From: an uncultured bacterium
GTDB lineage: Bacteria > Omnitrophota > Omnitrophia > Omnitrophales > Aquincolibacteriaceae
Direction: 5' to 3'
DNA length: 64,000 bases
Assembly (NCBI GenBank): GCA_964482725.1
Contig: CAYZYT010000003.1
Location: forward strand, 49,252-113,251
Translations under genes and position numbers: made by a program
Part shown: positions 27,651 through 43,818 of the stretch, one piece after another
Layout of the letters: each line of letters begins with the position of its first letter
Position numbering within the stretch: the first letter of the stretch is position 1
Notes under the pieces: model-generated
What the model was told of the DNA's origin: nothing
Database searches by the model: none
The model's input: only the letters and a program-made list of their open reading frames with translations

Positions 27651-29789
27651 GTGGCTTTCGATAAATCAAAATTCATCGACCAGTTCAAAACCGAGACGCG
27701 GGAGCGCATCCAGACGCTCAGTCTTGGCTTGCTGAAGCTTGAGAAAAATCCCTCGGACCGTGAACTTTTAAATTCCATGATGCGGGAGGCCCACAGCATT
27801 AAGGGCGGGGCCGGCATGATGGGGTACAAACGGATCGCGGACATCACCCATAAAATGGAAGACGGTCTTCAGCGAGCTTTGAACGGTCAAATCACCCTTA
27901 CAAAAACTTGTTTCGAAATGCTTTTTAAGTGCCTGGATGCCGTCGAGCCGCTTCTTCAGGATAAAGTGACCTGGAACGATCGCGGGATCAACCGAGACTT
28001 CACGGAAGATCTCTGCGTTTTGGCTGAAAAGATTTTTTCAGGAAATTTCAAGGGAGAAATCCCTCCGACGGTGGAAGCCGCGGTGGCATGTGCGGTGCCT
28101 GAAGCTCCGTTGGCGTCTGAACCCGAGGCGCCCCTGCCGCCGGCTTCGGAACCTGCGGCACCCGTGGAGGACAGTGTTCGGGTGGATATCGAAAAACTGA
28201 ACCGTCTGATTAATCTTTCCGGGGAGCTGCTCATTTCCAAAATTCGTCTCGAAGAACTTTCCAAAAACCTTTTGGAGAAAGCGGAAGCTCAGGGAGAAGC
28301 GTACGGGGTTTTCAGCGGAGTGGTGAAGGATCTGACCGCGGTGACGGACCGAATTGATCTCCTGACTGAGAACATGCAGGATGAAATGATGAAGGTGCGG
28401 ATGTTGCCGGTGGCTTATCTCTTCAATACGTTCCCCAGGGCGATGAGGGATCTTGCCCAGTCAAAAGGCAAGGGAATCGATCTTGTGATCGAGGGACAGG
28501 AGACCCATCTGGATAAAGCGATCCTAGATGAGATGAAAGTTCCTCTCATGCATCTTTTAAGGAATTCGGTGGATCATGGGATCGAATCTCCTGAGGAGAG
28601 GATAAGACAGAACAAGCCGGCTGTTGGGAAGATCTGTCTTTCTGCCACCCAAGAGGGTTCTCAGGTGGTCATTGCGGTAACGGATGATGGCCGCGGGATC
28701 GATGTGGCCAAGGTCAAGGAGATCGCGGTCGCGAAGGGGCTTGTTTCGCGAGAAAATATTCAGTCCATGGTGGATGAACAGGTCTTCCAGTTGCTTTTTG
28801 CCCCCGGGTTCAGCACGAGTGAAGAAGTGACCGAGATCTCGGGGCGCGGGGTCGGGCTTGATGTGGTCCGGGAAACGGTGATCCGGCTGAAGGGCATGGT
28901 GGAGGTCAGCTCCGATCCTTCTTTAGGGACGAGCTTTATCATCCGTTTGCCGCTGACACTTGCGATCACCAAAAGTCTTCTCGTGATGGCAGGAAGCGAT
29001 ACGTACGCCATCCCGGTCGATTCGGTGATCGAAACGGTCCGCATCGATCTGGACAATCTGAAGACTGTCGAGACCAAAGATGTGATCACCGTCCGCGGGC
29101 ACATTTTGCCGGTCGTGAAGTTGCATGATATTTTCGGGCTTCCCGCGAAAGGGATCCTGGAAAAGAAGTTTTTCCCCGTCCTGATCGTTCAGTCCGTTGA
29201 AAAAAGGGTCGGCCTCCTGGTGGATGAGCTTATCGGGCGCCAGGAGATCATCTCCAAAAGCATGGGGGATCCCTTGAAGCATGTGAAGCACATTTCGGGT
29301 GCGACGATCCTGGGAAGCGGGAAAGTGGTGATGATCCTGGATATCCCGTCGATCATCCATTCGGCGGAGGGCGGGGTGGTGCGGCCGTCGGAGGCAAAGC
29401 CCAAGGGGGCCCCCGGCAAAAAGAAAAAAACGATCTTGCTTGCCGAAGATACGCTCACGACTGCCATGCTCGAGAAAAACATCCTGGAGTCGGTGGGCTA
29501 TTCGGTCGTTATTGCGCGCGACGGCCAGGAAGCGCTCGACAAGGCTTCCCAGGAGAAATTCGATCTTGTGATCTCCGACGTTTTGATGCCGCGCATGGAC
29601 GGGTTTGAGCTGGTGACGCGCCTTCGAAGAGAAAAAAATTATAAAGAAATTCCGATCATCATCGTGACCACGCGTGAAAGCGATGAAGATAAGCGCAAAG
29701 GTATGGAAGCCGGAGCGAATGCCTATCTTCTGAAAAGCGATTTTACTTCCGAAGGTCTTCTGGAGACGATCGAGCGACTGCTCGGGTAA
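27651..29789 (+). CDS. cheA: CheA histidine kinase fused to a C-terminal CheY-like receiver (CheA-REC hybrid)
   Basis: The domain series is Hpt (REAHSIKGGAGMMGY), dimerisation, HATPase (GRGVGLDVV), CheW-like, then REC (ILLAEDTL...DLVISDVLMPRMDGFEL...LLKSDF). A GTG start has a GGGGG RBS-like motif upstream. Confidence 0.95.
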   Translation: MAFDKSKFIDQFKTETRERIQTLSLGLLKLEKNPSDRELLNSMMREAHSIKGGAGMMGYKRIADITHKMEDGLQRALNGQITLTKTCFEMLFKCLDAVEPLLQDKVTWNDRGINRDFTEDLCVLAEKIFSGNFKGEIPPTVEAAVACAVPEAPLASEPEAPLPPASEPAAPVEDSVRVDIEKLNRLINLSGELLISKIRLEELSKNLLEKAEAQGEAYGVFSGVVKDLTAVTDRIDLLTENMQDEMMKVRMLPVAYLFNTFPRAMRDLAQSKGKGIDLVIEGQETHLDKAILDEMKVPLMHLLRNSVDHGIESPEERIRQNKPAVGKICLSATQEGSQVVIAVTDDGRGIDVAKVKEIAVAKGLVSRENIQSMVDEQVFQLLFAPGFSTSEEVTEISGRGVGLDVVRETVIRLKGMVEVSSDPSLGTSFIIRLPLTLAITKSLLVMAGSDTYAIPVDSVIETVRIDLDNLKTVETKDVITVRGHILPVVKLHDIFGLPAKGILEKKFFPVLIVQSVEKRVGLLVDELIGRQEIISKSMGDPLKHVKHISGATILGSGKVVMILDIPSIIHSAEGGVVRPSEAKPKGAPGKKKKTILLAEDTLTTAMLEKNILESVGYSVVIARDGQEALDKASQEKFDLVISDVLMPRMDGFELVTRLRREKNYKEIPIIIVTTRESDEDKRKGMEAGANAYLLKSDFTSEGLLETIERLLG

Positions 29790-30249: not shown

Positions 30250-30360
30250 GTTTAAGCATTGGAAAATTCGAATTTGTTTCGAGTTTCGATATTCGGATTT
30301 AGGGTTTAGCGTTTAGAATTTAGGGTTTATTTTTGTTTCGATGTTCGGATTTTGATATTT
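30250..30360. repeat. Right arm of the inverted repeat flanking the four-helix-bundle ORF (TTTCGATATTCGGATTTAGGGTTTAG words)
   Basis: It is the reverse-complement partner of 29791-29890 and contains three TTTAGGGTTTA-like words. Confidence 0.5.
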
Positions 30361-30378
30361 GCATTTAAAGGGGGATCC

Positions 30379-31392
30379 ATGCCAAAAACCATCCGGGTTC
30401 TGATCGTGGACGATTCGACGCTGGCCCGTCAGGCTCTGAGCGCCCTTCTTAGTACGGATCCCGAGATCGAAGTGATCGGAGAGGCTCGTAACGGGAGAGA
30501 GGGTTATGAGAAGACCCTGGCTTTAAGGCCCGACGTGATCACTATGGATATTACGATGCCGGTCATGGATGGGGTTCAGGCCACGGAACTTATCATGGAG
30601 GAAGTCCCCACGCCGATCGTGCTCGTTAGCACCCGGGATGTCCAGGTGATCGTCAAGGCGCTCGCGTTCGGGGCGATGGATTTTGTGGCGAGCACCGGGG
30701 ATCTTGAAGAGATGAGGGCAGAGCTGATCGACAAGGTGAGGATCGCTTCACGAGTGAGGGCGATCCGGCGTATGCATACCCGTCCAGTCCTTCAAAGAAC
30801 GATTACTCGCCGGCCGGCCGCATCCACGGTCGTGGCTCTCGGGATATCAACGGGAGGCCCCCAGGCGCTTCAAATCCTGCTCTCCATGTTGCCGGCTAAA
30901 TTCCCTGGGAGCATTCTTGTGGTCCAGCATATTTCTTCCGGTTTTATTCAAGGGCTCGTGGAATGGTTGAGTGTCACCTCTCCACTCGATATCCGTGTCG
31001 CGAAGGCCGGGGATGCATTGAAGATCGGAACGGTCTTTTTCGCGCCGGATGGTGTTCATATGACTGTAGATAAAGAGGAAAAGATCGCTCTCAAGGAAGA
31101 TGTCTCCAAAAAGATGCTCCACGTCCCTTCGATCGATGTGATGATGCGATCCGTGGCGGAAGTTTATCAAGAAAGAGCCCTGGGGGTCATCATGACCGGG
31201 ATGGGCCACGATGGTGTGGAGGGGATCTCTTCGATCAAGTCTGCGGGAGGTTATACGATCGCGCAGGATGAAAAAACGTCCGCGATCTATGGGATGAACA
31301 AGCTTGCGGTAGATCAAGGTACGATCGAGCGTGTGTTGGCGCTTGAGCAGATCGCCGCCGAATTGATTCGCGTCGCCGGCGGCACGTACTAA
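30379..31392 (+). CDS. cheB: Chemotaxis response regulator protein-glutamate methylesterase CheB
   Basis: It has an N-terminal REC domain (RVLIVDDS...VITMDITMP) and a C-terminal methylesterase with the catalytic triad context GISTGGPQAL, VVQHISSGF and TGMGHDG. An AAAGGGGG RBS precedes the ATG at 30379. Confidence 0.9.
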   Translation: MPKTIRVLIVDDSTLARQALSALLSTDPEIEVIGEARNGREGYEKTLALRPDVITMDITMPVMDGVQATELIMEEVPTPIVLVSTRDVQVIVKALAFGAMDFVASTGDLEEMRAELIDKVRIASRVRAIRRMHTRPVLQRTITRRPAASTVVALGISTGGPQALQILLSMLPAKFPGSILVVQHISSGFIQGLVEWLSVTSPLDIRVAKAGDALKIGTVFFAPDGVHMTVDKEEKIALKEDVSKKMLHVPSIDVMMRSVAEVYQERALGVIMTGMGHDGVEGISSIKSAGGYTIAQDEKTSAIYGMNKLAVDQGTIERVLALEQIAAELIRVAGGTY

Positions 31393-31420: not shown

Positions 31421-31509
31421 CGTCATCCTGAGCACCGCGAAGGATCCCGCTTTGAGATTCTTCGGCCTGCTGCTTCTTGCTTCCGCAAGAAGCAGGTCTC
31501 AGAATGACG
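31421..31509. repeat. MITE-like nested palindrome element, copy E2 of the GTCATYC...GRATGAC family
   Basis: It reads cgtcatcctgagc ... gaaggatcccgctttgagattcttc ... ctgcttcttgcttccgcaagaagcag ... ctcagaatgacg, and is homologous along its length to 39829-39936. Confidence 0.55.
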
Positions 31510-31556
31510 TTTTTTGGGGTGCAGGATAAAACCATTTTTTTCATATAGGAAAATCC

Positions 31557-32750
31557 ATGAAAAAGAGAATTCTTGTGGTGGATGATAGCTCGCTGGTGCG
31601 CGAGATGTACAAGGCTCAGTTGGAAGAAGCCGGCTATGAGGTCTGGACCTCAGCGGATGGGATCGAAGCAATTAATGCGGCGTTCACTCAATCTCCCGAC
31701 CTCGTTTTGTTGGATGTCCATATGCCCAAGATCAATGGGTATCAAGTCTGCCGGCTTCTCAAGGATCGTTCTGAAACCAAAGATATCCCGATCGTCATTA
31801 TGACGGCTCGGGATGCCGGCGGGGTGGTCGAAGATCCCCAGAAATGGAGTTTTCAGACCGGCGCAGACGGATTTTATGGCAAAGACGAAGGCGCGGCCCT
31901 GCTGCCCTCCGTAGCCTTGTACCTTCAAAAAAATAGGCCCCTTGCGAAATCTCCCTTGGCCGGTCAGGCCAAAGCCATGAGTGAGACCGAGATCATGCTC
32001 GCGCTTTCCGAGCTTTTGGACCGCCAGCTTTATCTGGATATCACGCGGCTCAAGGAATTGAATGAAATGAAGAATGTGTTTGTTTCGAACGTGGCCCACG
32101 AGTTCCGAACACCGATCGCGGCCATGCAAGGTTATCTCGAGAACCTCCGGGATGGCATTTATGGTCCGGTGACGTCGGAACAGAAAGAAACCATGGCGGC
32201 GATGCTCAAGACGATCAGGCGCGTCTTGCGTTTAACACGGGACATGCTGGATATTTCAAAGATCGAAGCGGGAAGGCTCGAGCTGGATCACCAGGATGTT
32301 GACCTCGCGAAGGTCGTCAGGGAAGCGGCCAAGACTTTTGAAATCGAGGCTTCCAAAAAACGGATCAAGCTTGTTCTTCAGATCCCGGGCAATCCCGTTC
32401 ATTTCTGGGGGGACGAAGACCGGATACCTCAAGTGTTCGTGAATCTCATCAGCAATGCCATTAAATACACCCCCGAAGGCCAGACCGTAACGGTTCGGGT
32501 TCATGAAGAGCCGCAGGACGGTGCGATCCGTGTTGAGGTGGAAGATACCGGCAAGGGAATTCCTGTAGATCAGAGAGAAAATATCTTTGATAAATTCACC
32601 CGGATCAAGACTGAGAAAGAGGAAGGCACAGGCCTCGGGCTCTCCATCGCGAAGGACCTCGTCATGCTGCACGGAGGGAATATCTGGGTCGAGTCCGTTT
32701 CCCCCACAGGTTCCCGCTTCGTGGTCATTTTGCCCCAGAAGAAACCCTAG
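31557..32750 (+). CDS. Hybrid response regulator/histidine kinase (N-terminal REC, then HisKA and HATPase)
   Basis: The REC domain reads RILVVDDSSLVREM...LVLLDVHMPKINGYQVC, HisKA reads NVAHEFRTPIAAMQGY, and HATPase reads DEDRIPQVFVNLISNAIKYT ... DTGKGIP ... GTGLGLSIAK. Confidence 0.85.
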   Translation: MKKRILVVDDSSLVREMYKAQLEEAGYEVWTSADGIEAINAAFTQSPDLVLLDVHMPKINGYQVCRLLKDRSETKDIPIVIMTARDAGGVVEDPQKWSFQTGADGFYGKDEGAALLPSVALYLQKNRPLAKSPLAGQAKAMSETEIMLALSELLDRQLYLDITRLKELNEMKNVFVSNVAHEFRTPIAAMQGYLENLRDGIYGPVTSEQKETMAAMLKTIRRVLRLTRDMLDISKIEAGRLELDHQDVDLAKVVREAAKTFEIEASKKRIKLVLQIPGNPVHFWGDEDRIPQVFVNLISNAIKYTPEGQTVTVRVHEEPQDGAIRVEVEDTGKGIPVDQRENIFDKFTRIKTEKEEGTGLGLSIAKDLVMLHGGNIWVESVSPTGSRFVVILPQKKP

Positions 32751-32895
32751 TTCCCGCTTCGCGTCGCTTCCGAAAAATTCAGCCGACCAGCTTTCAAGGC
32801 AGGGACAAGGGGTTTAGTCCGTGGGGGGGTATGTCGATAATGAGTTATCGACATAATTCAGGTTTATGAACTATCATTAGGGAGAATCATGCTAA

Positions 32896-33285
32896 GTGGC
32901 GGGGTGTTCCGTGGCTAAAAAAATTCTGCTGGTCGATGACAGCGCGTTGGTGTGCGCCATGATCAAGACGCAGTTGGAAGAGGCCGGTTATGAGGTCTTG
33001 ATCGCGAAAGATGGGCAGGAGGGTTTGGACCTCGCACGTAAGGAAGTGCCCGATTTTATCTTGCTGGATCTGATGCTTCCAAAACTCGATGGCTATAAAG
33101 TCTGCCGGATGCTCAAATTCGACAAAGTTTTCGAGCATATTCCCGTTATTATTTTTTCGGCTCGGGAGAGTGATGCGGATAAGAAACTCGCGGAGCAGTC
33201 CGGGGCCAACGCGTATATGGTCAAACCGTTCGATCCGGAGTTGTTCCATAAGACGATCCAGAAGTTGACCCGGAACTCAGCCTAG
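32896..33285 (+). CDS. Single-domain CheY-like response regulator (paralog 1 of 4)
   Basis: It has the acidic pocket LLVDDS, phosphoacceptor Asp in FILLDLMLP, and Lys in MVKPFD. It is closest to paralog 4. Confidence 0.85.
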   Translation: MAGCSVAKKILLVDDSALVCAMIKTQLEEAGYEVLIAKDGQEGLDLARKEVPDFILLDLMLPKLDGYKVCRMLKFDKVFEHIPVIIFSARESDADKKLAEQSGANAYMVKPFDPELFHKTIQKLTRNSA

Positions 33286-33313
33286 ATCATTCAGGGATGC
33301 GAGAGTTGCTTCT

Positions 33314-33724
33314 ATGAAAAAAAAGATTCTTTTGGTGGAAGATGAATCCCAGATACGGACGATCATTAGCGCGCGGTTGGCGGCCATGGGTTTTGAGGTG
33401 CTGATCGCGAAAGATGGTCTCGAGGGGCTGCATCTCGTTCGCAAGGAATCTCCGGACGTCGTTTTGTTGGATCTGATGCTCCCCGGAATGGACGGCTACA
33501 AACTATGCCGGATGATCAAATTCGATGTGGCTCTTGAACATATCCCGGTCGTCATTTGTTCGGCCAGGGCGAGTGATGAGGACAAGAAACGTGCAGAACA
33601 GTCCGGCGCTGACGCTTATCTGGTGAAGCCGTTCGAGATCAAATTGTTTGTGGAGACCATCCAGAAGCTGCTAGGGGTCTCACCTTCCAACCAACCTGAC
33701 GGGTTAGAAAAACCAGACTCGTGA
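33314..33724 (+). CDS. Single-domain CheY-like response regulator (paralog 2 of 4)
   Basis: It has the REC motifs LLVEDES, VVLLDLMLPGMDGYKLC and LVKPFE, plus a short C-terminal tail. Confidence 0.85.
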   Translation: MKKKILLVEDESQIRTIISARLAAMGFEVLIAKDGLEGLHLVRKESPDVVLLDLMLPGMDGYKLCRMIKFDVALEHIPVVICSARASDEDKKRAEQSGADAYLVKPFEIKLFVETIQKLLGVSPSNQPDGLEKPDS

Positions 33725-33764
33725 AAAGTTATTGGATAGAGTCAAGGGCGCGTGAGGGGCTTTT

Positions 33765-34133
33765 ATGAAAAAAAAGGTCCTTTTTGTGGAGGATGAATCC
33801 CAGATACGGGAGATCATTCTCGCGCGGTTGACCGCCATGGATTTTGAGGTGGTGGTCGCCAAAGACGGTCTCGAGGGTTTGCGGCTTGTTCGCACGAAAC
33901 GCCCCGACATGGTTTTACTGGACCTGATCCTTCCAAAACTGGACGGCTACAAGCTTTGCCGGATGATCAAGTTCGATACCACGCTTGAGCATATTCCGGT
34001 GATCATCTGCTCGGCCCTGGGAAGCGACGAGGACAAAAAACTCGCCGAACAAGCCGGCGCAGATGCGTACATGATCAAACCGTTCGATATGGATTTGTTT
34101 GTTTCCCTGGTCCAAAAGCTGACGGGTGTTTGA
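33765..34133 (+). CDS. Single-domain CheY-like response regulator (paralog 3 of 4)
   Basis: It has the REC motifs LFVEDES, MVLLDLILPKLDGYKLC and MIKPFD. It is closest to paralog 2. Confidence 0.85.
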   Translation: MKKKVLFVEDESQIREIILARLTAMDFEVVVAKDGLEGLRLVRTKRPDMVLLDLILPKLDGYKLCRMIKFDTTLEHIPVIICSALGSDEDKKLAEQAGADAYMIKPFDMDLFVSLVQKLTGV

Positions 34134-34213
34134 TCTTCAGGTTTGGATTTTGAGAACAGGCGTTTTTAGGGATTTTTATTTTGATAAAATGAAAGGTGAA
34201 TAGGGCGAATTTC

Positions 34214-34582
34214 ATGAAAAAAAGGATCCTTTTGGTGGATGATGAGCCCAATATTCTGACGATCGTGAGCGCGCGCCTGGTGGCCCTGGGTTTCGAAGTG
34301 CTGATCGCTCGAGACGGTCAGGAGGGCTTGGACCTTGCGCGCAAGGAATCTCCGGATGCGATCTTGTTGGATCTGATGCTTCCGAAGCTCGATGGTTATA
34401 AAGTCTGCCGGATGCTCAAATTCGACAAGGTTTATGGGCATATCCCGGTGATCATCTTTTCAGCCAAGGGGAGTGAGGAGTCTAAGAAGATGGCGGATCA
34501 GGCCGGTGCCGACGCGTATATGGTCAAGCCGTTCGATAACAAGTTGTTCGCGGAGACAATGAAGAGGCTGACAGGGGTTTGA
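34214..34582 (+). CDS. Single-domain CheY-like response regulator (paralog 4 of 4)
   Basis: It has the REC motifs LLVDDEP, AILLDLMLPKLDGYKVC and MVKPFD. An alternative GTG start lies at 34196. Confidence 0.85.
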   Translation: MKKRILLVDDEPNILTIVSARLVALGFEVLIARDGQEGLDLARKESPDAILLDLMLPKLDGYKVCRMLKFDKVYGHIPVIIFSAKGSEESKKMADQAGADAYMVKPFDNKLFAETMKRLTGV

Positions 34583-34599: not shown

Positions 34600-36270
34600 A
34601 TGGTCCCAGACGTTAAATTATTAGAATTGTTGGTGAAGCAAGGGATGCTTCAGCAGGAGCAGGCGGATCAGGCCAAAAAAGAGGCGGGTCGCGTCGGCCA
34701 GTCTCTTGAATCCGTTCTTGTGAAGAGCGGTTTTATCACCGATGAAGAACTCGCCAGCACAAAAGCTACGATCCTCGGAGTGCCCTACATCGACATCAAT
34801 AATTATCGTCTCGACCGTGAACTGGTCAAGTTGATCCCCGAGAAGATCGCAAAGAAATACAGTCTTATCCCTCTTTTTTCGACCGGCGAAGCGCTTTCCA
34901 TCGGGATGATCGATCCTCAGAATATCGTGGCCATCGACCAGATCCGTAAACTCACCAACTTTGACGTGGTCGATCCCATCCTGGTCTCCTCAGGAGGTTT
35001 TCAGGCCGCGCTCAACACCTATTATCGTTCCTACGGTTCCATGGCGGATATCGTCAAGACCCTTGAAAAAGAGAAAACGCCCAGCATGGGCGAATCGCTT
35101 TTGGGCGAGATCACTGAGAAGACCCCTGTCAGCAAGCTCGTGGATTCTTTGCTGATGCAGGCCGTTCAATCTCGAGCCTCGGACATCCATATTGAACCTG
35201 AAGAAACGATCGTTTCGGTACGGCTTCGCGTGGACGGGCTTTTGCATCACATCACGACTTTTCCGCTTGTGATCCAAAACGCGGTCGTCTCGCGCGTGAA
35301 GATCCTGGGCGGCATGGATATCACCGAGAACCGGAAGCCCCAGGACGGCAAGATCCGCATGGAGCTCGAGGGGAAGGATCTGGATATCCGCGTTTCAACC
35401 TTCCCGACCCTTTTCGGCGAGAACGTGGTGCTGCGACTTTTGGACAAGCGTGCGATGCTTCCGAACCTTGTGGAATTAGGTTTTTCCAAAGAGAACCTCG
35501 ATAATTTTTCAAAACTGATCACGCGCTCGCATGGCATCATTCTGGTAACCGGCCCCACGGGAAGCGGGAAAACGACTACGCTTTACGCGGCGCTTTCCAA
35601 GATCAACAGCGAAGAGAAAAATATTGTGACGATCGAAGATCCCGTGGAATATGTGCTGCCCCGGGTTCGTCAGACCCAGGTCAATGTCAAAGCCGGCATC
35701 ACCTTTGCCAACGGGCTGCGAGGATTTTTGCGTCAAGATCCAGACATTATGATGGTCGGTGAGATCCGCGATAAGGAGACTGTGGAAATGGCGATCCAGT
35801 CGGCGCTGACCGGACATCTTGTGTTCTCAACCTTGCACACCAACGACGCCCCTTCCGCCTTGGCGCGCCTCATCGACATGGGGGCGGAACCGTTTCTGAT
35901 CTCTAGCTCGGTGATCGGGATCCTGGCGCAGAGGCTTGTTCGTGTGAATTGTCCCAAGTGTCGTGAGCCTTACACTCCCTCAGCTGCGGTGCTCCAAAGC
36001 GTCGGACTTCCGGAGGGAACCCAGGTGATGCGCGGGAAAGGCTGCACCAAATGCAACCAGAGCGGATTCACAGGTCGTATTGGGATCTTTGAGTTGATGT
36101 ACATTACCGATGAGATCAAATCCCTTGTGGATGCTCGTCGTTCGGCCGCGGATATCAAGAAGAAAGCCGTGGAGCAGGGGATGAAGACCTTGCGGCAGGA
36201 TGGTTTAGAAAAAGTCCTGAAAGGGATGACGCCTCTCGAAGAAGTCCTGAGAGTGACCGAGATCGAATAA
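34600..36270 (+). CDS. pilB: Type IV pilus assembly ATPase PilB/GspE family (MshE-like)
   Basis: It has an N-terminal T2SSE_N-like domain, Walker A GPTGSGKTTTLYA, Asp and His boxes, and a tetracysteine motif (CPKCREPY...CTKCNQSGF). The start was chosen at the ATG with a GGAGAG RBS, although the ORF opens at a TTG at 34579. Confidence 0.9.
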   Translation: MVPDVKLLELLVKQGMLQQEQADQAKKEAGRVGQSLESVLVKSGFITDEELASTKATILGVPYIDINNYRLDRELVKLIPEKIAKKYSLIPLFSTGEALSIGMIDPQNIVAIDQIRKLTNFDVVDPILVSSGGFQAALNTYYRSYGSMADIVKTLEKEKTPSMGESLLGEITEKTPVSKLVDSLLMQAVQSRASDIHIEPEETIVSVRLRVDGLLHHITTFPLVIQNAVVSRVKILGGMDITENRKPQDGKIRMELEGKDLDIRVSTFPTLFGENVVLRLLDKRAMLPNLVELGFSKENLDNFSKLITRSHGIILVTGPTGSGKTTTLYAALSKINSEEKNIVTIEDPVEYVLPRVRQTQVNVKAGITFANGLRGFLRQDPDIMMVGEIRDKETVEMAIQSALTGHLVFSTLHTNDAPSALARLIDMGAEPFLISSSVIGILAQRLVRVNCPKCREPYTPSAAVLQSVGLPEGTQVMRGKGCTKCNQSGFTGRIGIFELMYITDEIKSLVDARRSAADIKKKAVEQGMKTLRQDGLEKVLKGMTPLEEVLRVTEIE

Positions 36271-37487
36271 TGGAAGTCTCCTACCGCTATCAAGCCCGTG
36301 ATAAATTTGGACGGTCGGTGGCCGGACAGATGAGCGCCGTCTCCGATACGGAGGTCGCGACCAACCTTAAAACGAAGGGGCTGACTCCCTTTTCCATTGA
36401 GCCTATCGGGGAAAAGGCGTCCCGTGATTTTTTGGCGCCCTTTCGCCGCTTTAAACAAAGTGACGTCAATGCCTTTACGCGTGAGCTTTATACACTGACC
36501 CGGGCCGGATTGACCATCCTGGCATCTCTGGAGGTGATCGGGGAGCAAGACCGAAATCCCGTGCTCAAGAAGATCGTGGAAGGGCTCATCCAAAGTATCC
36601 GGGGCGGTGCGAGCATCTCCGATAGCTTGCAGCGTTATCCGAAGATCTTTAGCGTCCTTTACGTCAACATGATCCGGGCCGGTGAGGTTTCGGGTCGGCT
36701 GGAACAGATCCTGGAGCGCTTGATCTTCATTGGCGAGGCGGAAGAAAAACTTCAGATGCGCGTCAAGGCGGCGCTTCGTTATCCCGCCATTGTCTTTGGA
36801 GCTCTTGTGCTGGCGTTCCTATTTCTCACCAATTTTATCATCCCGCGTTTTGCCGTTCTTTTCACCCAAAGCGGTGTCGAGCTGCCGCTCCCGACCCGTC
36901 TCCTTTTAGGGATCCATGATGCTTTTACGAAGTATGGGTGGGTGACGGCGATCCTCGTGACCGCCCTGGTGATCTTTCTTATCCGATTTCTGAAGACTCC
37001 CACGGGGAAGCTTTGGCGTGATCGTCTCATGCTCAAGGTACCTGTTTTCGGGTCGTTAATTCTCAAATCTGAAATGTCGCGCTTTGCCCGCATCATGGCG
37101 CTTTTGATCCAGAGCGGGATCCCGGCACTTCGGGCTCTTGAGATCGCATCCGGAAGTTCTGATAATAAAGTGATCGTCGGAGCGATCGATAAGATTCGTG
37201 TGAGTGTTACGGAAGGGACCAGTATGACCGAGCCTATGAAGGCGAGCGGCATTTTTCCGCCTTCGGTGGTACGGATGGTCCATGTGGGGGAAGAGACCGG
37301 GAAAATTGATGAGTTGCTTTTAAAGGTCTCGGAATACTATGATATGCAGGTGGAATACACAGTTACCAATCTGATGGTTCTGATCGAACCGATGTTGATC
37401 GTGGTGCTCGGAGGGATGGTGTTTGTGCTGGCGCTCGGGATGTTCCTCCCGATGTGGAATATGATCAAGGTGTTTCAGCACGCATAG
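36270..37487 (+). CDS. pilC: Type IV pilus platform protein PilC/GspF family
   Basis: 405 aa with two GspF-type repeats and 3 TM helices. Its start overlaps the pilB stop (TAATG). Confidence 0.9.
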   Translation: MEVSYRYQARDKFGRSVAGQMSAVSDTEVATNLKTKGLTPFSIEPIGEKASRDFLAPFRRFKQSDVNAFTRELYTLTRAGLTILASLEVIGEQDRNPVLKKIVEGLIQSIRGGASISDSLQRYPKIFSVLYVNMIRAGEVSGRLEQILERLIFIGEAEEKLQMRVKAALRYPAIVFGALVLAFLFLTNFIIPRFAVLFTQSGVELPLPTRLLLGIHDAFTKYGWVTAILVTALVIFLIRFLKTPTGKLWRDRLMLKVPVFGSLILKSEMSRFARIMALLIQSGIPALRALEIASGSSDNKVIVGAIDKIRVSVTEGTSMTEPMKASGIFPPSVVRMVHVGEETGKIDELLLKVSEYYDMQVEYTVTNLMVLIEPMLIVVLGGMVFVLALGMFLPMWNMIKVFQHA

Positions 37488-37590: not shown

Positions 37591-37659
37591 TTTTTCGATC
37601 GACTTAAGTAAAGTGTCCGGGAATGAATGATGTATAAAAATAACAAAAGGAGAAGTCCA

Positions 37660-38034
37660 ATGTTCAAACGCGAAAAAGGTTTTACGCTCATTGAATTGAT
37701 CATGGTGATCGTGCTGTTAGGTCTTTTGGCGGTTGTGGCGATCCCGCAATACACCAATCTCCAGACCCAGGCCAAGACGGCTGCCGAACAAGGGGTGGTC
37801 GGAGGTGTTCGTTCGGGCATCTACACCAAATATGCCGCCAATCTGGCGCAAAATGTCACTCCGGCCTACCCGGCAACACTAGGCGGAACTGGAAGTTGCA
37901 CAACGGGCAGTCCCTGTTTTGGCAATGTTCTTTCACAGGGGATCACGCAGGATTGGTCAGCCAGTGGTGCGACTTTCACGGGTCCCAATGGTGGTACTTA
38001 CACCTACAACGCTACGACCGGGACTTTCCAATAA
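37660..38034 (+). CDS. pilA: Type IVa major pilin (prepilin with N-terminal methylation motif)
   Basis: It has a 7-aa leader MFKREKG followed by FTLIELIMVIVLLGLLAVVAIPQY. An AAAAGGAGAA RBS precedes the ATG at 37660. Confidence 0.85.
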   Translation: MFKREKGFTLIELIMVIVLLGLLAVVAIPQYTNLQTQAKTAAEQGVVGGVRSGIYTKYAANLAQNVTPAYPATLGGTGSCTTGSPCFGNVLSQGITQDWSASGATFTGPNGGTYTYNATTGTFQ

Positions 38035-38140
38035 TAATCTTTGTGGCGGAGTGATGTGGGGTGTTTCTGCATTAATTGAGGCATAGGGCTGCAAAACGAA
38101 GCAGACCTGTTCCCGACAAATCAACAAAAGGAGAATGTAA

Positions 38141-38515
38141 ATGTTTAAACGTGCAAAAGGTTTTACGCTCATTGAATTGATCATGGTGATCGTGCTGTTA
38201 GGTCTTTTGGCGATCGTGGCGATCCCGCAATACACCAATCTCCAGACTCAGGCCAAGACGGCCGCAGAACAAGGGGTGGTCGGAGGCGTTCGTTCGGGGA
38301 TCTACACCAAGTATGCCGCCAACTTAGCGCAAAATGTCACGCCTGCTTTTCCGGCCACGTTGGATGCCAATGCGAACGGTGCTTGTGTGACCTGCTTTAC
38401 CAACGTTCTCTCTCAACCGATCAACGACACGACCTGGACTAAGTCCGGATCGGCTTATACAGGGCCTAATTCCGGCGTTTACTCCTACAACGCTACGACC
38501 GGGACTTTCCAGTAA
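38141..38515 (+). CDS. pilA: Type IVa major pilin, tandem paralog
   Basis: The leader MFKRAKG is followed by FTLIEL. Its N-terminal 75 aa are near-identical to the first pilin, the C-terminal variable region diverges, and the last ~20 aa are conserved. Confidence 0.85.
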   Translation: MFKRAKGFTLIELIMVIVLLGLLAIVAIPQYTNLQTQAKTAAEQGVVGGVRSGIYTKYAANLAQNVTPAFPATLDANANGACVTCFTNVLSQPINDTTWTKSGSAYTGPNSGVYSYNATTGTFQ

Positions 38516-38544
38516 TAAGATTTGTGCCCGATCACAGTTGTGGA

Positions 38545-38580
38545 AAAGCGGGCGTCCTCAAAGGACGCCCGCTTTTCGTT
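38545..38580 (+). terminator. Rho-independent terminator after the second pilin gene
   Basis: The sequence aaaaGCGGGCGTCCtcaaaGGACGCCCGCttttcg forms a 10-bp GC-rich stem followed by Ts. Confidence 0.8.
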
Positions 38581-38596
38581 ATCGAAAGGGTGATTC

Positions 38597-39730
38597 GTGA
38601 ATAAGAAGGGTTCGGCCCTGATGACGGTGCTTATCGTCGTCATCCTTATTCCCATTATTGTTTTTGCCACCACCAGTTTCATTACGTCTTCCTTGCTCCG
38701 CTACACCACGCAAAACAGGAACATCAAGGCCCTCTACCTTGCCCAGGCGGGGATCCATCGGGCCATTTACAAGATCAGGAACGGTGCGCCCGGCGCGCCT
38801 CTGACGGATTTTACCGACCATATCCCCCCAGGCTCGGACGACACAGCCCTTGTGCAACAGACGGGAATAAGTGGTAATGTCTATCAGGTCAAATCGACAG
38901 GAACCTCGGTTGCGGTAAATTATCCGACGCTGATCTCCCGAATGGTTTCTGTGCAATACAATGACAACACGAACAAAATCAGCCTTTGTGCTGAGGGGGA
39001 TGGCACCGGCTTTCCGCCTCTGTGTAGTGCGATTTGGTGGCCGTTTAGCGAGGGATCGGGATATACGACAGGGACCTCGCCCTATGGGGGCACTCTGACG
39101 CCTTCGACTGCAAACGGGCCGGCATGGACTACCGATCGTTATGGGGCCGCGGGGAAAGCGCTCAATTTTAATCAAGCCGCCACCACCAATTATGTGGTCG
39201 TTCCTGATTCTGCGGGGCTTGATCTCACCACCTCTGGAACACTCATGGCATGGATCCGTCCCTCTGCGATACCCAACCAAGCCCAACAGACCATTGTGCA
39301 TAAAGGGGGAGCTACGACAGCCACGAATGCTTATGCCCTTTTTCTTCGTCGACAGAGCACTAATCTAGCCAGAGTCCGATTTTGGATTTACAGTGGCACT
39401 GGGAATGGCACCCAATATTTGGCAAGTGGTGGTACGAATATGGGCCTTAACACTTGGTACCATATCGCCGGAGTTTGGGACTCAACCGGTTTGCGTGTCT
39501 ACCGCAATGGAGTGCCCGACGGTACTCTCGTGAGCGCCAATCGGGTGGCGAGGACTAATGCCAATTCCTTGTACATAGGTGCGAGTGGGACTTTGGCAGC
39601 AGCCCAAGAGTTTGCCGGGAAAATCGATGAAGTGTACATCTATGGTTGCCGAAAAACCGATGCGGAAATTAAGACTTATTACAATGCCACCTGCGCCGGA
39701 AGCGGCGCGACTCCTTGTCCGCAGCCTTGA
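38597..39730 (+). CDS. Minor pilin (PilX/GspK-like N-terminus lacking Glu5) with a C-terminal LamG/concanavalin-A-like jelly-roll domain
   Basis: A GTG start has a GAAAGGG RBS upstream. The N-terminus KKGSALMTVLIVVILIPIIVF is pseudopilin-like without E5. The C-terminal region (TLMAWIRP...WYHIAGVWDSTGLRVYRNGVPDG...SLYIGA...GKIDEVYIY) has a LamG-like pattern. Confidence 0.55.
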   Translation: MNKKGSALMTVLIVVILIPIIVFATTSFITSSLLRYTTQNRNIKALYLAQAGIHRAIYKIRNGAPGAPLTDFTDHIPPGSDDTALVQQTGISGNVYQVKSTGTSVAVNYPTLISRMVSVQYNDNTNKISLCAEGDGTGFPPLCSAIWWPFSEGSGYTTGTSPYGGTLTPSTANGPAWTTDRYGAAGKALNFNQAATTNYVVVPDSAGLDLTTSGTLMAWIRPSAIPNQAQQTIVHKGGATTATNAYALFLRRQSTNLARVRFWIYSGTGNGTQYLASGGTNMGLNTWYHIAGVWDSTGLRVYRNGVPDGTLVSANRVARTNANSLYIGASGTLAAAQEFAGKIDEVYIYGCRKTDAEIKTYYNATCAGSGATPCPQP

Positions 39731-39828
39731 TCCGGGGAATGAATGATAAACTCTAAACTCGAAATCCGAGACTCTAAACAAATTCAAATTTATGAAAACT
39801 CTAAACACTAGAGCGTCTCTCAATAGCG
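39731..39828. repeat. A/T-rich CTCTAAAC / CGAAATCCGAG repeat copy, same family as 16541-16650 and 29791-30360
   Basis: It contains ctctaaactcgaaatccgagactctaaacaaa...aaactctaaacacta. Confidence 0.4.
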
Positions 39829-40304
39829 TCGTCATCCTGAGCTTGCCCCGTTTTACGGGGCGGGCGAAGGATCTCACTTTGAGATTCTTCGGACTGCTGC
39901 CTTCTGCGAAGGCAAGAAGCAGGTCTCAGAATGACGCCTTTCTGCGAAAAGGTGTCACGCTGATAGAACTGATCATGGCCATGGTCATATTGGTCGCGAT
40001 CTCCATCCCGACGGCTTCTATGATCGGAGCGCAGATCCAGGGTATGGCCGAGTCTTCAGACCTTACGGCGGCCGGGAATGCGGCGCGAGCGCAGATGGAA
40101 AAACTCGAGAATACCGCCTATGGAAATGTCACGGCAAACAGCACCACCGTTTCTCCTTACGAGCTGAGCTGGGGCGTCGCGGAGACCGTGAATGGCACCG
40201 AAGCGATGAAAAATATTACGATGAGCATTCAGAGGACCGGGACGTCATCGGTTCTGTTGACGCTTTACAACACGTTCTGTAAGGGTGTGAGCGACGGCGA
40301 ATGA
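39792..40304 (+). CDS. Pseudopilin (type IV prepilin-like) whose 5' end is uncertain or disrupted by inserted repeats
   Basis: The mature-pilin-like segment G-VTLIELIMAMVILVAISIP starts at about 39951. The only in-frame ATG upstream is at 39792, and the 53 aa before the Gly are a read-through of the two repeat elements. No canonical start exists within 20 codons of the Gly. Confidence 0.45.
   Translation: MKTLNTRASLNSVVILSLPRFTGRAKDLTLRFFGLLPSAKARSRSQNDAFLRKGVTLIELIMAMVILVAISIPTASMIGAQIQGMAESSDLTAAGNAARAQMEKLENTAYGNVTANSTTVSPYELSWGVAETVNGTEAMKNITMSIQRTGTSSVLLTLYNTFCKGVSDGE
39829..39936. repeat. MITE-like nested palindrome element, copy E3 of the GTCATYC...GRATGAC family
   Basis: It reads cgtcatcctgagc ... 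ccccgttttacgggg ... gaaggatctcactttgagattcttc ... ctgccttctgcgaaggcaagaagcag ... ctcagaatgacg. Confidence 0.55.
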
Positions 40305-40383
40305 AAAATATCCGCGGGTTTACCCCGTTAGAGACTGGTCAAAGATCACTTCAGCTACGTTTTCCTGGTGAGGGGCAATAAGC

Positions 40384-40998
40384 ATGAACGCCTGGGTAGG
40401 GCAGGACTCGCGGAAGCGCTCAAAGAAGCGCTTCCTGTCTCTAACGGGGTTTACCCTTATTGAGCTTGTGATGGTAATTCTTATCGCGAGCGCTCTTTCC
40501 ATGGGCGGGTACTACATCATGCAGTTTATGGTCCAGAATACCTTCTACTTGCCGAACCAGGTCCAGACAGATCTCGCGGCCGCGCAGGCCTTGGAGACTT
40601 TGGTCGAAGGGGATACGGCGACCGTTCACGGATTACGTTTCTCAAGGACCGTAACGGCTCTTGCGCCCAACGACGTGACGGTGAAGGACCAGGATTGCGG
40701 AGATTTGAGGTTCTGGCTGGATACGGCGAATCACCAGCTCAAACGGCAGATTGGAGGGGGGGCCGAGACTGTGGTGCCGTATTTTATGCCTCCGAGTGTG
40801 TCTTTTACCGGATCCGGTGTCGGAGATGCTTTTTTCACTTATTACGATGGGTTGGAGGTAGAGACGAATGACCCTACCAAGGTGCGCCGCATCCAGATCA
40901 ATTTAATTGCTCAACAAGGAGCGGGTTCGGTCGATAGTTTTCAAGGGATCAGTCGTCAGAACACGTCCGTTAAAGTGAGTAAATATACATGCGTGTAA
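40384..40998 (+). CDS. Pseudopilin (prepilin-type N-terminal cleavage/methylation domain protein)
   Basis: The leader ...RFLSLTG is followed by FTLIELVMVILIASALSMGGYYIM. The mature part is about 180 aa. Confidence 0.6.
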   Translation: MNAWVGQDSRKRSKKRFLSLTGFTLIELVMVILIASALSMGGYYIMQFMVQNTFYLPNQVQTDLAAAQALETLVEGDTATVHGLRFSRTVTALAPNDVTVKDQDCGDLRFWLDTANHQLKRQIGGGAETVVPYFMPPSVSFTGSGVGDAFFTYYDGLEVETNDPTKVRRIQINLIAQQGAGSVDSFQGISRQNTSVKVSKYTCV

Positions 40999-41094
40999 AC
41001 CCGGAAGCTACCGTGTTTAGTTTATTCTTCCGGGTTAACGGTACGGTTCGGATCCATTAATTAAACACAACGGGTCATCATCGCCAGGAGTCTC

Positions 41095-42672
41095 ATGTCT
41101 TTTCTTTCTATAGAATTAGGGAAGCATCAGTTCAAGGTGCTTTTACTTGAAAGAGAGAAGGATGTTTTGGTGATCCGGCAAGATCTCGCTCTCATCATTC
41201 CTCCCGAGTTCATCAAATCCAAGATCCCCGAAGCGCTTAAGGATTTTATGCGGCGCTACGATGTTACGGATCACAAGATTTTTTTGACCCTTTCGGACCC
41301 GAGCGTGATCACCCTTAAGAATGCTGTGTTCCCCCTGATGGCGACAGGCGAACTTGTGGCGGCGATCGCATGGCACGCCAAAGAAGAGGGGGTCTTGACG
41401 GAGGATGTGATCTTTTTTAGTTATGAGATCGTCAAGGAGTTCGAGGACTCCGAAGGCGCGAAGAAGGTCGCGGTGACGTATTCAACCGTGAACCGGAAGC
41501 TTCTCGAAGAGTCGATCCGGATGCTGAAGCGGATGGGCCTCGAGGTCCTCCATGTGAGTGCTGCGCCGCTCAACACCCCGAAGGTTTTGCCGGCTGCGGC
41601 AGACAAGTCTCAATCTCAGATGGTGCTGCATCTGGGGTATTCCTCTTCGACTTGTGTGATCTATAAAAATGGAAAACTGGTTTTTATGAGAACCTTGTCG
41701 TTCTCTTACGAGAAAACCCGGTTGAGTCTGAACGACCCGCTCTTTTTGGGGGCGAAGTTCAGAACCCCGGCAGCCGAGGCGGAGATCGAGAAGGCGATCC
41801 AGACGATCGGGATCCCTCACGAAGAATTCTCGGTCGGGAGCGGGGAGAACCAGGCCACGCAGTTTTTTGGTCTCATGCGACCGGTCTTGGAAGGTCTTGT
41901 CCGTGAGATCCGTTATTCCCTGACTTATTTTATGCAAAACTTAAGTGAAGAAAAGCCTTCGGCTTTGTTCCTGACGGGACATGGCACGAGATTCAAGGGC
42001 CTGGATCTTTATCTTAACAGAGAGTTGGAAATGCCCGTTTCAAACCTGAGGCTGCCTTCGTCAGCCCGGTGCGACCAGGCCGCTGTCCTTGAAGACCCGA
42101 TTCGGCTCAGTCAGTGTGTGAGTGCGGTGGCAGGACTTCTTCCGGGTGAGAAGAGCGCGGATTTCATGCCTTTTGAGATTAAAAGCCAGAAGTTCGAAAC
42201 TTTCCAGAGAAGTGTCTTGAAAATGGTTACGCTTGTTGCGGCGGGGCTCTGTGTGAGCTCATTCATTTTAGCGAATCTTCACGGGGTTTTTTTAAAGGAG
42301 CGTTTCGGGCTTGGAGAAAAAGAGCTTGCGAACTTCGGGAAATTCGCTCAGGCTTCAGCCCAGGCGTTCCCGAAGTATTATTTGACGCGCGAGTTGGAAA
42401 AAGCGACGATCCCTGCCGACAAAGTTTTGCGTCTCTTGGGGCATTTGATGCCCGGGGGGTTGGCGATGCGCCATTTTGAAGTCGATTCTTCAAGCCGTTC
42501 CATGGTGGCAGATCTTGAGACGTCCGGGTTGGATGAGGGGGGGAATCCGATGGTCGAGGACCTCCTCAGGAGGCTCCGGGAAACGGGATTTTTTAAAAGG
42601 GTCGATGCGAAGCCCGTGAACGGATATTCGGTGTCCGTTTACAGGCTCGAAGGAGTTTTCCGAAATGATTAA
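41095..42672 (+). CDS. pilM: PilM-like actin-fold ATPase with a fused C-terminal PilN-like bitopic domain
   Basis: The N-terminal ~350 aa are PilM/FtsA-like (a CAGGAG RBS precedes the start). A TM helix (VTLVAAGLCVSSFILANL) and a periplasmic domain of about 130 aa follow. Confidence 0.65.
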   Translation: MSFLSIELGKHQFKVLLLEREKDVLVIRQDLALIIPPEFIKSKIPEALKDFMRRYDVTDHKIFLTLSDPSVITLKNAVFPLMATGELVAAIAWHAKEEGVLTEDVIFFSYEIVKEFEDSEGAKKVAVTYSTVNRKLLEESIRMLKRMGLEVLHVSAAPLNTPKVLPAAADKSQSQMVLHLGYSSSTCVIYKNGKLVFMRTLSFSYEKTRLSLNDPLFLGAKFRTPAAEAEIEKAIQTIGIPHEEFSVGSGENQATQFFGLMRPVLEGLVREIRYSLTYFMQNLSEEKPSALFLTGHGTRFKGLDLYLNRELEMPVSNLRLPSSARCDQAAVLEDPIRLSQCVSAVAGLLPGEKSADFMPFEIKSQKFETFQRSVLKMVTLVAAGLCVSSFILANLHGVFLKERFGLGEKELANFGKFAQASAQAFPKYYLTRELEKATIPADKVLRLLGHLMPGGLAMRHFEVDSSSRSMVADLETSGLDEGGNPMVEDLLRRLRETGFFKRVDAKPVNGYSVSVYRLEGVFRND

Positions 42673-43252
42673 TGTCCAAAAGGACCGGATCACTTATTCC
42701 CAGATCGCGATCTTTGTATGGGCGCTTTCGATCGTGCTGGGGGTTGTTCTTTTTTTTCAGTTCGTGGATGGTCCGGCAGATTTACGAGTGCTGGGGATCC
42801 GTGAGCGTCTGGATGTTATTGAAACCCGGCTGAAGTGGATGACCCAGACCATTGACACGATCCAGGATCCCGTAAAGGTCCTGGAATATTTCAAGGAGAA
42901 GGATCGGGATCTTGACCGAAGGTTTCCTGATGCGGCGGAGAAGTCTTTGCTGATGCTGACGGAGTATGCCAACAAATTTGGGCTTCGGGTCGAACGGATC
43001 CAGGCGGAAAGACCGCGGAAGGTTGTGAGCGCTCGCGGGGGGCCGCTTGACGCGGAAGGAAAGATTTGTTATGGAGTGCAGGTTTCCCTTAGGTTTAAAG
43101 GGGAGTACTACAACCTCGTTAAGTATCTCGATGCCTTGCGCAAGGTGGTCCCGGCTTTTCTGGTCGTGAGGGATATCTCGATCGATAATAAGTTTTCGTC
43201 TGGGCCGAAGCTCGAAGGTACTCTGGATCTGAGTCTCTACCTCCTGGAGTGA
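42665..43252 (+). CDS. pilO: PilO-like inner-membrane pilus assembly protein
   Basis: It has an N-terminal TM, a coiled coil, and a C-terminal ferredoxin-like region (VSLRFKGEYYNLVKYLDALRKVVPAFLVVRDISI). It overlaps the upstream gene. Confidence 0.5.
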   Translation: MINVQKDRITYSQIAIFVWALSIVLGVVLFFQFVDGPADLRVLGIRERLDVIETRLKWMTQTIDTIQDPVKVLEYFKEKDRDLDRRFPDAAEKSLLMLTEYANKFGLRVERIQAERPRKVVSARGGPLDAEGKICYGVQVSLRFKGEYYNLVKYLDALRKVVPAFLVVRDISIDNKFSSGPKLEGTLDLSLYLLE

Positions 43253-43734
43253 TGATGCAAAAAAAAGTGGCTTTCCAACTGGGTGTGATCGGGGTCATGG
43301 CGCTTGCCTTGGTGCTTATGAGTATTCCTCTTTTTAAGAAGGGGACGGGGGGCTCCAAGAAGCTTTCGACGTCCCCTGCCGCGTCCGGGCTTGCGTCCAA
43401 TGCGGGTCTCGGGCGGACGGATTCCTCCGGGCCAACGATCAAGTTGCGGCATATAAAGGACGATAAATTCTATGAGAGGCTTAGCCGTGTTGCGGAGGCT
43501 TTGCCCCTGGCTCGCGATCCTTTTTCTTTTACTTTTACAGGTCCCAAGAGTCTGCGCGATGGTATGGAGCTTGCAGGGATCCTCTGGGAAGGTGAAAAGC
43601 CCATCGCGATCATTAATCAGTCATTTTTTAATGTCGGAGATTCCAACGAGCAATTCAGCGTGATCAAGATCTTGCAGGACCGGGTGGTGTTAAAAGATAG
43701 AACCGGAGAGTTCGAACTTCGCCTGAAACAGTAG
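43249..43734 (+). CDS. pilP: PilP-like lipoprotein or bitopic pilus assembly protein
   Basis: It has an N-terminal hydrophobic segment, the conserved RDPF motif (LARDPFSF), and a C-terminal beta domain. Confidence 0.45.
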   Translation: MMMQKKVAFQLGVIGVMALALVLMSIPLFKKGTGGSKKLSTSPAASGLASNAGLGRTDSSGPTIKLRHIKDDKFYERLSRVAEALPLARDPFSFTFTGPKSLRDGMELAGILWEGEKPIAIINQSFFNVGDSNEQFSVIKILQDRVVLKDRTGEFELRLKQ

Positions 43735-43818
43735 TACGTCATGGGATCAATTCGTCCTGGATTTGTAGGACAGGTTTCAATCTGCCCTACCTCAGTAGGT
43801 GAATTCACGGGAGGCATC

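Follow-up and report, generated by a model that had tools for sequence, protein, structure and literature searches.

Why should four stand-alone receiver genes be lined up directly ahead of the gene for a pilus extension motor? The question is raised by a stretch of DNA from an uncultured bacterium of the phylum Omnitrophota (assembly GCA_964482725.1, contig CAYZYT010000003.1, forward-strand positions 49,252 to 113,251), whose 64,000 nucleotides (nt) are here called the window and are numbered from their first letter. Members of this phylum are uncultured and mostly ultra-small, and their near-universal type IVa pili are thought to serve attachment to host cells and movement on them (PMC10066038). 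In the window, four genes for single-domain receivers (REC1 to REC4) lie head to tail between a complete chemosensory (che) cluster with a hybrid CheA, followed by a receiver-gated histidine kinase (REC-HK), on one side and the extension ATPase gene pilB on the other, a setting that was proposed in a first-pass annotation of the bare sequence and that Pfam matches confirm. The array is not a one-off: its four copies stand at the upper end of a range of one to four across the Omnitrophota loci that we recovered. We consider it about an even question whether the four RECs are an expanded set of a single-domain regulator that usually lies directly 5' of pilB, with CheA and REC-HK as their inputs and the pilus motor as their output.

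The array and its receiver residues

All four genes are read on the plus strand. With the likely starts chosen by comparison with orthologues, REC1 occupies 32911..33285 (124 amino acids (aa) from GTG 32911, a start common to its orthologues), REC2 33314..33724 (ATG 33314, 136 aa, the last 14 residues forming a C-terminal tail), REC3 33765..34133 (ATG 33765, 122 aa) and REC4 34214..34582 (ATG 34214, 122 aa). Longer open frames begin at GTG 32896 for REC1 (129 aa in the open reading frame (ORF) listing) and at GTG 34196 for REC4 (128 aa). Of the lengths first given for the four genes (129, 136, 122 and 123 aa), the first three stand, while that of REC4 does not. The spacers within the array are 28, 40 and 80 nt long (62 nt for the last with the REC4 start at 34196), in rough agreement with the 30 to 60 nt first described, and PilB starts 18 nt after the REC4 stop codon.

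Each REC gives a full-length match to PF00072 (E 1e-24 to 1e-27; 9.5e-27, 1.1e-26, 3.7e-24 and 5e-24 for REC1 to REC4), scoring 85-94 bits against a cut-off of 30.2 bits and covering profile positions 1-106 (REC4) to 1-110 of 111, with no second domain above gathering score. Aligned to Escherichia coli CheY, all four retain D/E12, D13, D57, S at T87, A88, Y106, K109, P110 and F111 (CheY numbering). The ORFs, the PF00072 matches and this alignment bear out the earlier description of four intact receiver-only genes that keep the phospho-acceptor aspartate and the conserved lysine. The alignment also gives the acidic pairs, which from REC1 to REC4 read DD, ED, ED and DD, just as had been reported for the second and third genes, and the D+2/T+2 residues, which read M/R, M/R, I/L and M/K; REC3, with I at D+2 and L at T+2, is the most divergent copy. 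The ED of REC2 and REC3 is unremarkable, because E-D is the normal state of the acidic pair in PhoB-type receivers, the class against which these RECs score best.

The best PDB and NCBIfam matches of the RECs are receivers of PhoB/RpaB/PleD/RR468 type, from libraries that hold no PilG/PilH model. The CheY model NF007901 / PRK10610 scores 68.5 bits for REC2 against a cut-off of 189 bits and is not among the 25 top families listed for the other three RECs, and no NCBIfam model reaches its cut-off for any REC. A named family for the receivers was set aside, all NCBIfam matches being below cut-off and the PDB sequence matches being generic receivers.

Tandem paralogues are a known source of misassembly, and the array might on that ground be suspected of being an assembly or binning artefact, with a collapsed or chimeric repeat in place of four genes. 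The copies are, however, only 65-76% identical as DNA, 60-74% as protein and 43-60% at third codon positions, and because of this divergence they are old paralogues and not the product of a collapse or duplication during assembly. The Logan assemblies of three different runs, each built independently from short reads, reproduce window positions 31013-33123 and 33096-34426 at 100% identity; since these two segments together span every junction of the array, the array is not an artefact. The same gene order is present in the related loci L089, L090, L085 and L087, described below. We found neither many identical arrays nor degenerate receiver residues; the 64-kb window holds this single array and no further receiver-only gene. 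With the divergence of the paralogues and the three exact independent assemblies in hand, we ruled out an artefact, the probability of which is negligible.

Receiver arrays at pilB in related loci

Relatives of the locus were gathered by a degenerate-pattern scan with one genome per species, nearly all of them metagenome-assembled genomes of Candidatus Omnitrophota. The ORFs of these loci (loci are numbered with the letter L) were classified against the window proteins, and further loci came from a REC3 protein search, contig look-ups and a metagenome scan. It should be noted that these loci were retrieved by their similarity to the RECs and are not a random sample of the phylum, and that the frequencies given here are not unbiased. 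The recurrent order among them is a histidine kinase, one to several small RECs, PilB, PilC and pilin. When the copies are tallied over the 50 loci whose REC runs are uncut by contig ends, one to four small RECs stand directly 5' of pilB in 41 (one copy in 18 loci, two in 12, three in 5 and four in 6), with no copy in the other 9. A histidine kinase gene precedes the run in 21 loci, and CheB does so in 4.

At least three other Omnitrophota populations carry this four-gene array too, so that conservation in related genomes, which the first-pass annotation had put forward as a check, is found in L089, L090, L085/L086 and L087/L088. L089 belongs to the same species as the window (94% nt identity) and, like L090 (PilB 92% aa identity), carries CheA, CheB, REC-HK, four RECs, PilB and PilC. 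L085/L086 (PilB 83-86% aa identity) and L087/L088 (78-86%) run from CheR to CheA, CheB, four RECs and PilB without REC-HK, the pilB of L088 being split into two ORFs. Smaller sets are present in L082-L084 (PilB 95% aa identity), with two copies only, one REC2-type and one REC4-type; in L096 (85%), with a REC1-type and a REC4-type copy; and in L003-L006, L092, L093, L095, L098 and L099 (73-88%), with one REC4-type copy. A recent expansion private to this genome, considered because L003-L006, the closest GTDB representatives, carry a single copy, was ruled out by the four-copy arrays and the positional orthology of L085-L090. It is also in L085-L090 that the PilG/PilH-type setting shown by the RECs, namely stand-alone receivers with a che cluster linked to type IV pilus genes, is kept.

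Individual copies can be followed between these loci. The search with the REC3 protein recovered, besides its own cluster, numerous relatives that are 60-69% identical, with the REC3 protein 93-98% identical in L089 and L090; the C-terminal tail of REC2 is common to L082_a and L090_2; and REC4 is 88% identical to L082_b and 74% identical to the single copy of L003. DNA alignment shows the L082 lineage to be syntenic with the window on both flanks and to be without about 12.6 kb, which comprise the che cluster, REC-HK, REC1 and one REC2/3-type copy.

Three or four small RECs were also observed at kinase/pilB loci in L013, L026, L041 and L040, directly before pilB in L013. Multi-receiver arrays at pilB arose more than once in Omnitrophota, because the members of these four loci fall in different, anciently diverged receiver clades.

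Strong purifying selection acts on each of the four array positions. For the pair L085 and L087 the ratio of nonsynonymous to synonymous divergence (dN/dS) is 0.087, 0.034, 0.085 and 0.020 at positions 1 to 4, with dS of 0.45-1.2, and ratios as low as these (0.02-0.09) show that selection maintains all four genes. Between the window and L085 synonymous sites are saturated (proportion of synonymous differences (pS) 0.75-0.82), and the positional orthologues are kept.

Descent and recombination of the four copies

From shared motifs, the first-pass annotation had paired the first paralog with the fourth and the second with the third, and had deduced two rounds of duplication. In bootstrapped neighbour-joining trees, in which REC1 to REC4 of the window appear as W_1 to W_4, strong support is given to a REC1 group (W_1, L085_1, L087_1; 100%), a REC4 group (W_4, L082_b, L085_4, L087_4; 96%) and a REC2 group that includes W_3 (96%). 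The pairing of REC1 with REC4 as sister paralogues was rejected: their clade has 11% bootstrap support, their identity of 69% compares with 68% for REC2 and REC4, and the motifs that had suggested the pair (KFDK and IIFSA) are ancestral, since the single-copy orthologues have them too. The other pair holds in part, in that W_2 and W_3 form a clade with 81% support, but their similarity is partly that of a 5' gene-conversion tract. W_3 as an orthologue of L085_3 and L087_3 is not supported either (1% bootstrap), although gene conversion blurs the relations between REC2 and REC3. Two rounds of duplication are thus too simple a history for an array with ancestral motifs, a chimeric REC1 and a converted REC2. 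REC4 is the ancestral pilB-linked copy, being both the positional and the phylogenetic orthologue of the single receiver of the relatives.

The conversion tract can be seen by comparing the two ends of REC2. Over its first 90 nt W_2 is 87% identical to W_3 and 74% to the orthologue L090_2, whereas nt 270-366 are 89% identical to L090_2 and 67% to W_3; in L090 itself the second and third RECs are uniformly 66-71% identical. This pattern shows that gene conversion has brought REC3 sequence into the 5' end of REC2.

REC1 is likewise, by its identities, a mosaic in which an N-terminal third like that of the neighbouring REC-HK receiver, with the 'DDS' alpha1 of Che-linked receivers, is set on a REC4-like body. 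Over the first 32 residues (beta1-alpha1-beta2) the REC1 group is 62-66% identical to the REC-HK receiver and 44% to REC4, whereas beyond them it is far closer to REC4 (70-74%) than to the REC-HK receiver (38-41%). The first 96 nt of REC1 are 74% identical to the REC-HK receiver (84% in L091) versus 50-53% to REC4, and both REC1 and the REC-HK receiver carry 'DDS-LV--M-K-QLEEAGYEV'. Serine at the single position after the acidic pair occurs in 7/7 small RECs directly after CheB/CheA versus 8/137 after a kinase or another REC; REC2, REC3 and REC4 carry the 'DDE/EDE' type of alpha1, which is found in kinase-linked receivers elsewhere in the recovered loci. Genes of REC1 type adjoin the che cluster wherever the upstream side is readable (the window and L085-L090); L091 and L096 also carry them, on loci too short to show the upstream context, and the L082 lineage, which has no che cluster at the locus, is also without REC1.

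Proposed signal path and alternative functions

We suggest a path that would lead from the chemoreceptors to CheA, from there to the receiver-gated kinase, and through the receivers to the pilus motor. The Hpt domain of CheA would phosphorylate REC1 and the receiver of REC-HK, as gene order, helix similarity and analogy suggest, and REC1 would fill the place of a stand-alone 'CheY', which is missing from the che cluster itself; the HisKA domain of REC-HK would in turn phosphorylate REC2, REC3 and REC4, whose 'DDE/EDE' alpha1 is of the type seen in kinase-linked receivers. Alpha1 is the main docking helix of receivers for kinases and Hpt domains, and because REC1 and the REC-HK receiver share the 'DDS' alpha1, both are probably phosphorylated by CheA. 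As the RECs have no output domain, they must act by protein-protein contact or by phosphate flux. Phosphorylated receivers may contact PilB or its partners PilC/PilM and so adjust pilus extension, and the copies could differ in being activators, antagonists or drains for phosphate; the sink, relay or several-output roles that were first proposed for the array are all plausible. The adjacency of RECs and pilB, the short spacer between REC4 and pilB and the plus strand of the array, on which there is no convincing internal terminator, point to the pilus motor as the probable target. The published cases of receivers that act on PilB (DrdR, PixG with PixH, PilG and PilH), compared below, favour this reading as well.

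Several observations weigh against an expanded set of motor regulators fed by CheA and REC-HK. REC2-4-type genes persist in L085 and L087, where the locus has no REC-HK, so REC-HK cannot be the universal donor, and the L082 lineage keeps REC2 and REC4 without an adjacent che cluster or kinase; other donors must therefore exist. The RECs resemble PhoB/RpaB/PleD-type receivers more than CheY. The likeness of alpha1 between REC1 and REC-HK could reflect recombination between neighbours without functional meaning, the 'DDS' marker is one residue counted in a small set of genes, which were found through their similarity to the RECs, and the copy-number tally comes from loci retrieved in the same way and not at random. 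The candidate phosphodonors and targets were themselves proposed from gene order, helix similarity and analogy.

An alternative is that one or more copies are phosphate sinks without a target of their own, which would drain CheA or REC-HK and so end signalling quickly where there is no dedicated phosphatase, while only one copy, probably REC4, addresses the motor. No CheZ, CheC or CheX family was found by Pfam among the genes of the chemosensory cluster, and relatives manage with one or two copies; sink receivers are moreover documented beside an output regulator, as with PixH (PMC11181946) and possibly PilH (PMC11656802). Three sinks per output would, however, be unusual, and the purifying selection with which each orthologue group keeps its own sequence (dN/dS 0.02-0.09) goes beyond what a plain sink would appear to require. 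A weaker point in the same direction is that D+2/T+2 pairs of this kind reportedly mark, in work from the Bourret laboratory, slow-dephosphorylating PhoB-type receivers rather than fast sinks. We regard the division into sinks and one output as unlikely, though not far-fetched. A lack of any division of labour, with the extra copies as redundant, near-neutral duplicates that reflect dosage or transient copy-number variation, would fit the fast change in copy number (two copies in the L082 lineage at 95% PilB identity, one in several relatives) and the gene conversion that homogenises parts of REC2 and REC3. It is improbable given that positional orthologues are kept across lineages as saturated at synonymous sites as the window and L085, that dN/dS is low at every position, and that there are systematic differences between the copies both in alpha1 and at D+2/T+2.

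The linkage to pilB might also be a matter of co-expression, with the RECs regulating another process, such as exopolysaccharide synthesis in the manner of EpsW, c-di-GMP enzymes or the kinase itself. EpsW is the best-scoring stand-alone-receiver model in NCBIfam, but at 68-85 bits it lies far under its 200-bit cut-off. The protein is a single-domain receiver with a CheA-type kinase as input and polysaccharide synthesis as output (PMC4671073, PMC12802240). In the domain scan no polysaccharide or c-di-GMP genes were found adjacent to the array, and the position of a REC directly before pilB in those 41 of 50 loci is held while PilB identity ranges from 51% to 98%, which makes a target outside the pilus improbable.

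A more elaborate wiring can be put forward, although we hold it to be doubtful: a two-tier relay, undescribed for any pilus system, in which CheA would phosphorylate REC1 and the kinase receiver, and the kinase would then phosphorylate three receivers that differ in phosphoryl lifetime and in their action on PilB, the wiring having been made, and re-made in related lineages, by recombination that moves alpha1 between neighbouring receivers. If true, this would be a natural case of specificity rewired by module swap and not by point mutation. More generally, the recurrence of a kinase, one to four receivers and pilB suggests that the extension motor is under direct two-component control, and in some lineages that control would sit under a chemosensory array, a testable hypothesis on host-seeking. 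The transplant of alpha1 between a kinase receiver and a stand-alone receiver, together with tandem gene conversion, would make these loci a natural system for the rewiring of phosphotransfer after duplication.

Genes around the array

The chemosensory cluster begins on the plus strand with a CheR that has C-terminal TPR repeats (21220..22731; Pfam CheR 1.3e-57 and TPR families) and continues on the same strand with two CheW genes (22731-23195 and 23195-23719; Pfam CheW 3.8e-35 and 1.2e-34), a dCache_1-HAMP-MCP chemoreceptor (23930-25807; Pfam MCPsignal, HAMP and dCache_1) and a HAMP-MCP chemoreceptor (25969-27477; Pfam MCPsignal and HAMP). The hybrid CheA (27651..29789, plus strand) combines Hpt, dimerisation, HATPase and CheW domains with a C-terminal REC by Pfam, which detects one Hpt domain; NCBIfam CheA models match below their cut-offs. 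CheB methylesterase (30352..31392, plus strand) has REC and CheB_methylest domains (Pfam 6.7e-57). Between CheA and CheB lies a gene of the '23S rRNA-intervening sequence protein' family (PF05635, 29896-30243, 115 aa), which behaves as an indel (29855-30279), being absent from L089, L090 and L087/L088 but occupying the corresponding place in L085/L086, which are more distant. When the window is compared with L082-L084, the che block (21105-33740) is present or absent as a unit between conserved flanks, of which one consists of the LssY_C and M48 peptidase genes with a small gene at 20721-21104, and the other of the REC pair and pilB. No flagellar genes were found among the approximately 30 genes scanned at 18.4-50.1 kb, the first 18 kb and the last 14 kb lying outside the scan.

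REC-HK (31557..32750, plus strand, 397 aa) is a REC-HisKA-HATPase kinase by Pfam, its N-terminal receiver being the sole input domain that Pfam detects; it is present in L089 and L090 and absent at the locus in L085 and L087. The spacer between REC-HK and REC1 contains a perfect 11-bp inverted repeat, TATGTCGATAA-TGAG-TTATCGACATA (32830-32855), which might be an operator; 5' of REC1 there is a promoter-like site (32848-32877), and the repeat overlaps its -35 hexamer. The repeat has one copy in the window and, among the fetched loci, is found only in L001, from the same organism; as an operator shared with other sites it was rejected, no further copy being present in the window or in the loci of other organisms.

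Downstream, the PilB-type extension ATPase (34600..36270, plus strand, ATG 34600) has MshEN and T2SSE domains (Pfam T2SSE 1.6e-137) and a length of 556 aa that agrees with its orthologues, and scores 607 bits against the 676-bit cut-off of NCBIfam type_IV_pilB. At its N-terminus (34600-34800) a match to the MshE-type c-di-GMP-binding motif is sub-threshold (28.4 bits against a cut-off of 38 bits), and in the first MshE motif, by eye, K and L replace the R and G of MshE, which leaves c-di-GMP binding uncertain. The 64-kb window yielded no further PilB-like ATPase ORF, in a search that was not aimed at pilT. The platform protein PilC follows (36270..37487, plus strand; Pfam T2SSF 4.4e-51), and the remaining pilus cluster extends on the plus strand over 37627..45363 (Pfam N_methyl, Laminin_G_3, PilM_2 and Secretin). 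It comprises pilin-like genes starting at 37627, 38141 and 39792 (N_methyl), a 377-aa LamG-domain protein (38597-39730; Laminin_G_3, LamG/concanavalin-like), a PilM-like gene (41095-42672; PilM_2) and a secretin gene (43741-45363; Secretin), directly after which stands an AAA_22 ATPase gene (45360-46163). The pilin genes 3' of PilC vary in tandem number, with three of near-identical length in L084 (5196-6469) and two in the window (37627-38515). The LamG protein is kept among the pilin genes, at the same place, in L003-L005, L082, L085, L087 and others, and could be a pilus-associated adhesin.

Comparison with known systems

The Pil-Chp system of Pseudomonas aeruginosa is like the present locus in having stand-alone receivers, PilG and PilH, with a che cluster, and a CheA with a C-terminal REC. 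Its CheA, ChpA, has several Hpt domains, whereas a single one is detected by Pfam in the CheA of the window. PilG and PilH are two genes and here there are four; unlike in Pil-Chp, the receivers here abut pilB, with a receiver-gated HisKA kinase between them and the che genes, and they match PhoB/RpaB/PleD-type receivers best, in libraries without a PilG/PilH model. PilG and PilH control the extension of type IV pili and the polarisation of PilB, with antagonistic roles (PMC10519157, PMC11656802), and no direct interaction of PilG or PilH with PilB has been reported (PMC11656802).

Direct contact with the motor is known from two other settings. In Synechocystis sp. PCC 6803, PixG and PixH are both phosphorylated by the chemotaxis-like kinase of the Tax1 system, which has a REC of its own; once phosphorylated, PixG binds the extension motor PilB1, and it is opposed by PixH, which probably acts as a phosphate sink (PMC11181946). 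PixG, however, has a PATAN domain where the RECs here are bare receivers, and tax1 is not fused to pilB and has two regulators, as against four adjoining pilB. EmvR of Xanthomonas oryzae and DrdR of X. campestris are output-less receivers that bind PilB and alter its ATPase activity (PMC11973254, PMC13507683); DrdR also binds PilT (PMC13507683), and the input of EmvR is a HisKA-type kinase (PMC11973254, PMC13507683). Both are single orphan genes that do not lie beside pilB, whereas the array here adjoins it, and no chemosensory input is described for them, whereas here a che cluster lies upstream. DrdR, further, is a single chain with two REC domains, of which one is degenerate, while the RECs here are single-domain and intact.

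Several receivers under shared kinases are known mainly from chemotaxis. Reports on multi-CheY systems describe paralogues that share one or few kinases, some acting as sinks and some as outputs (PMC2924250, PMC3774744, and work cited in PMC11181946). Examples are CheY1/CheY2 of Sinorhizobium, CheY1-6 of Rhodobacter sphaeroides and CheY1-4 of Vibrio cholerae. These systems drive flagellar motors, whereas the setting here is that of a pilus, and their paralogues are mostly spread over operons, whereas here four stand in tandem ahead of a motor ATPase gene.

The first-pass annotation knew of no described system with four tandem CheY genes at a pilus locus, and in the literature we found no paper describing a four-receiver pilus locus or the regulation of pili in Omnitrophota; two Omnitrophota genome papers discuss pili, with response regulators and chemotaxis unmentioned in the main text. 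The array is nevertheless not unique within Omnitrophota. The kind of regulator is thus a known one, represented by PilG/PilH, PixG/PixH and EmvR, and what is new here is the presence of four copies, their fusion to pilB, the interposed receiver-gated kinase and the recombinational origin of the copies.

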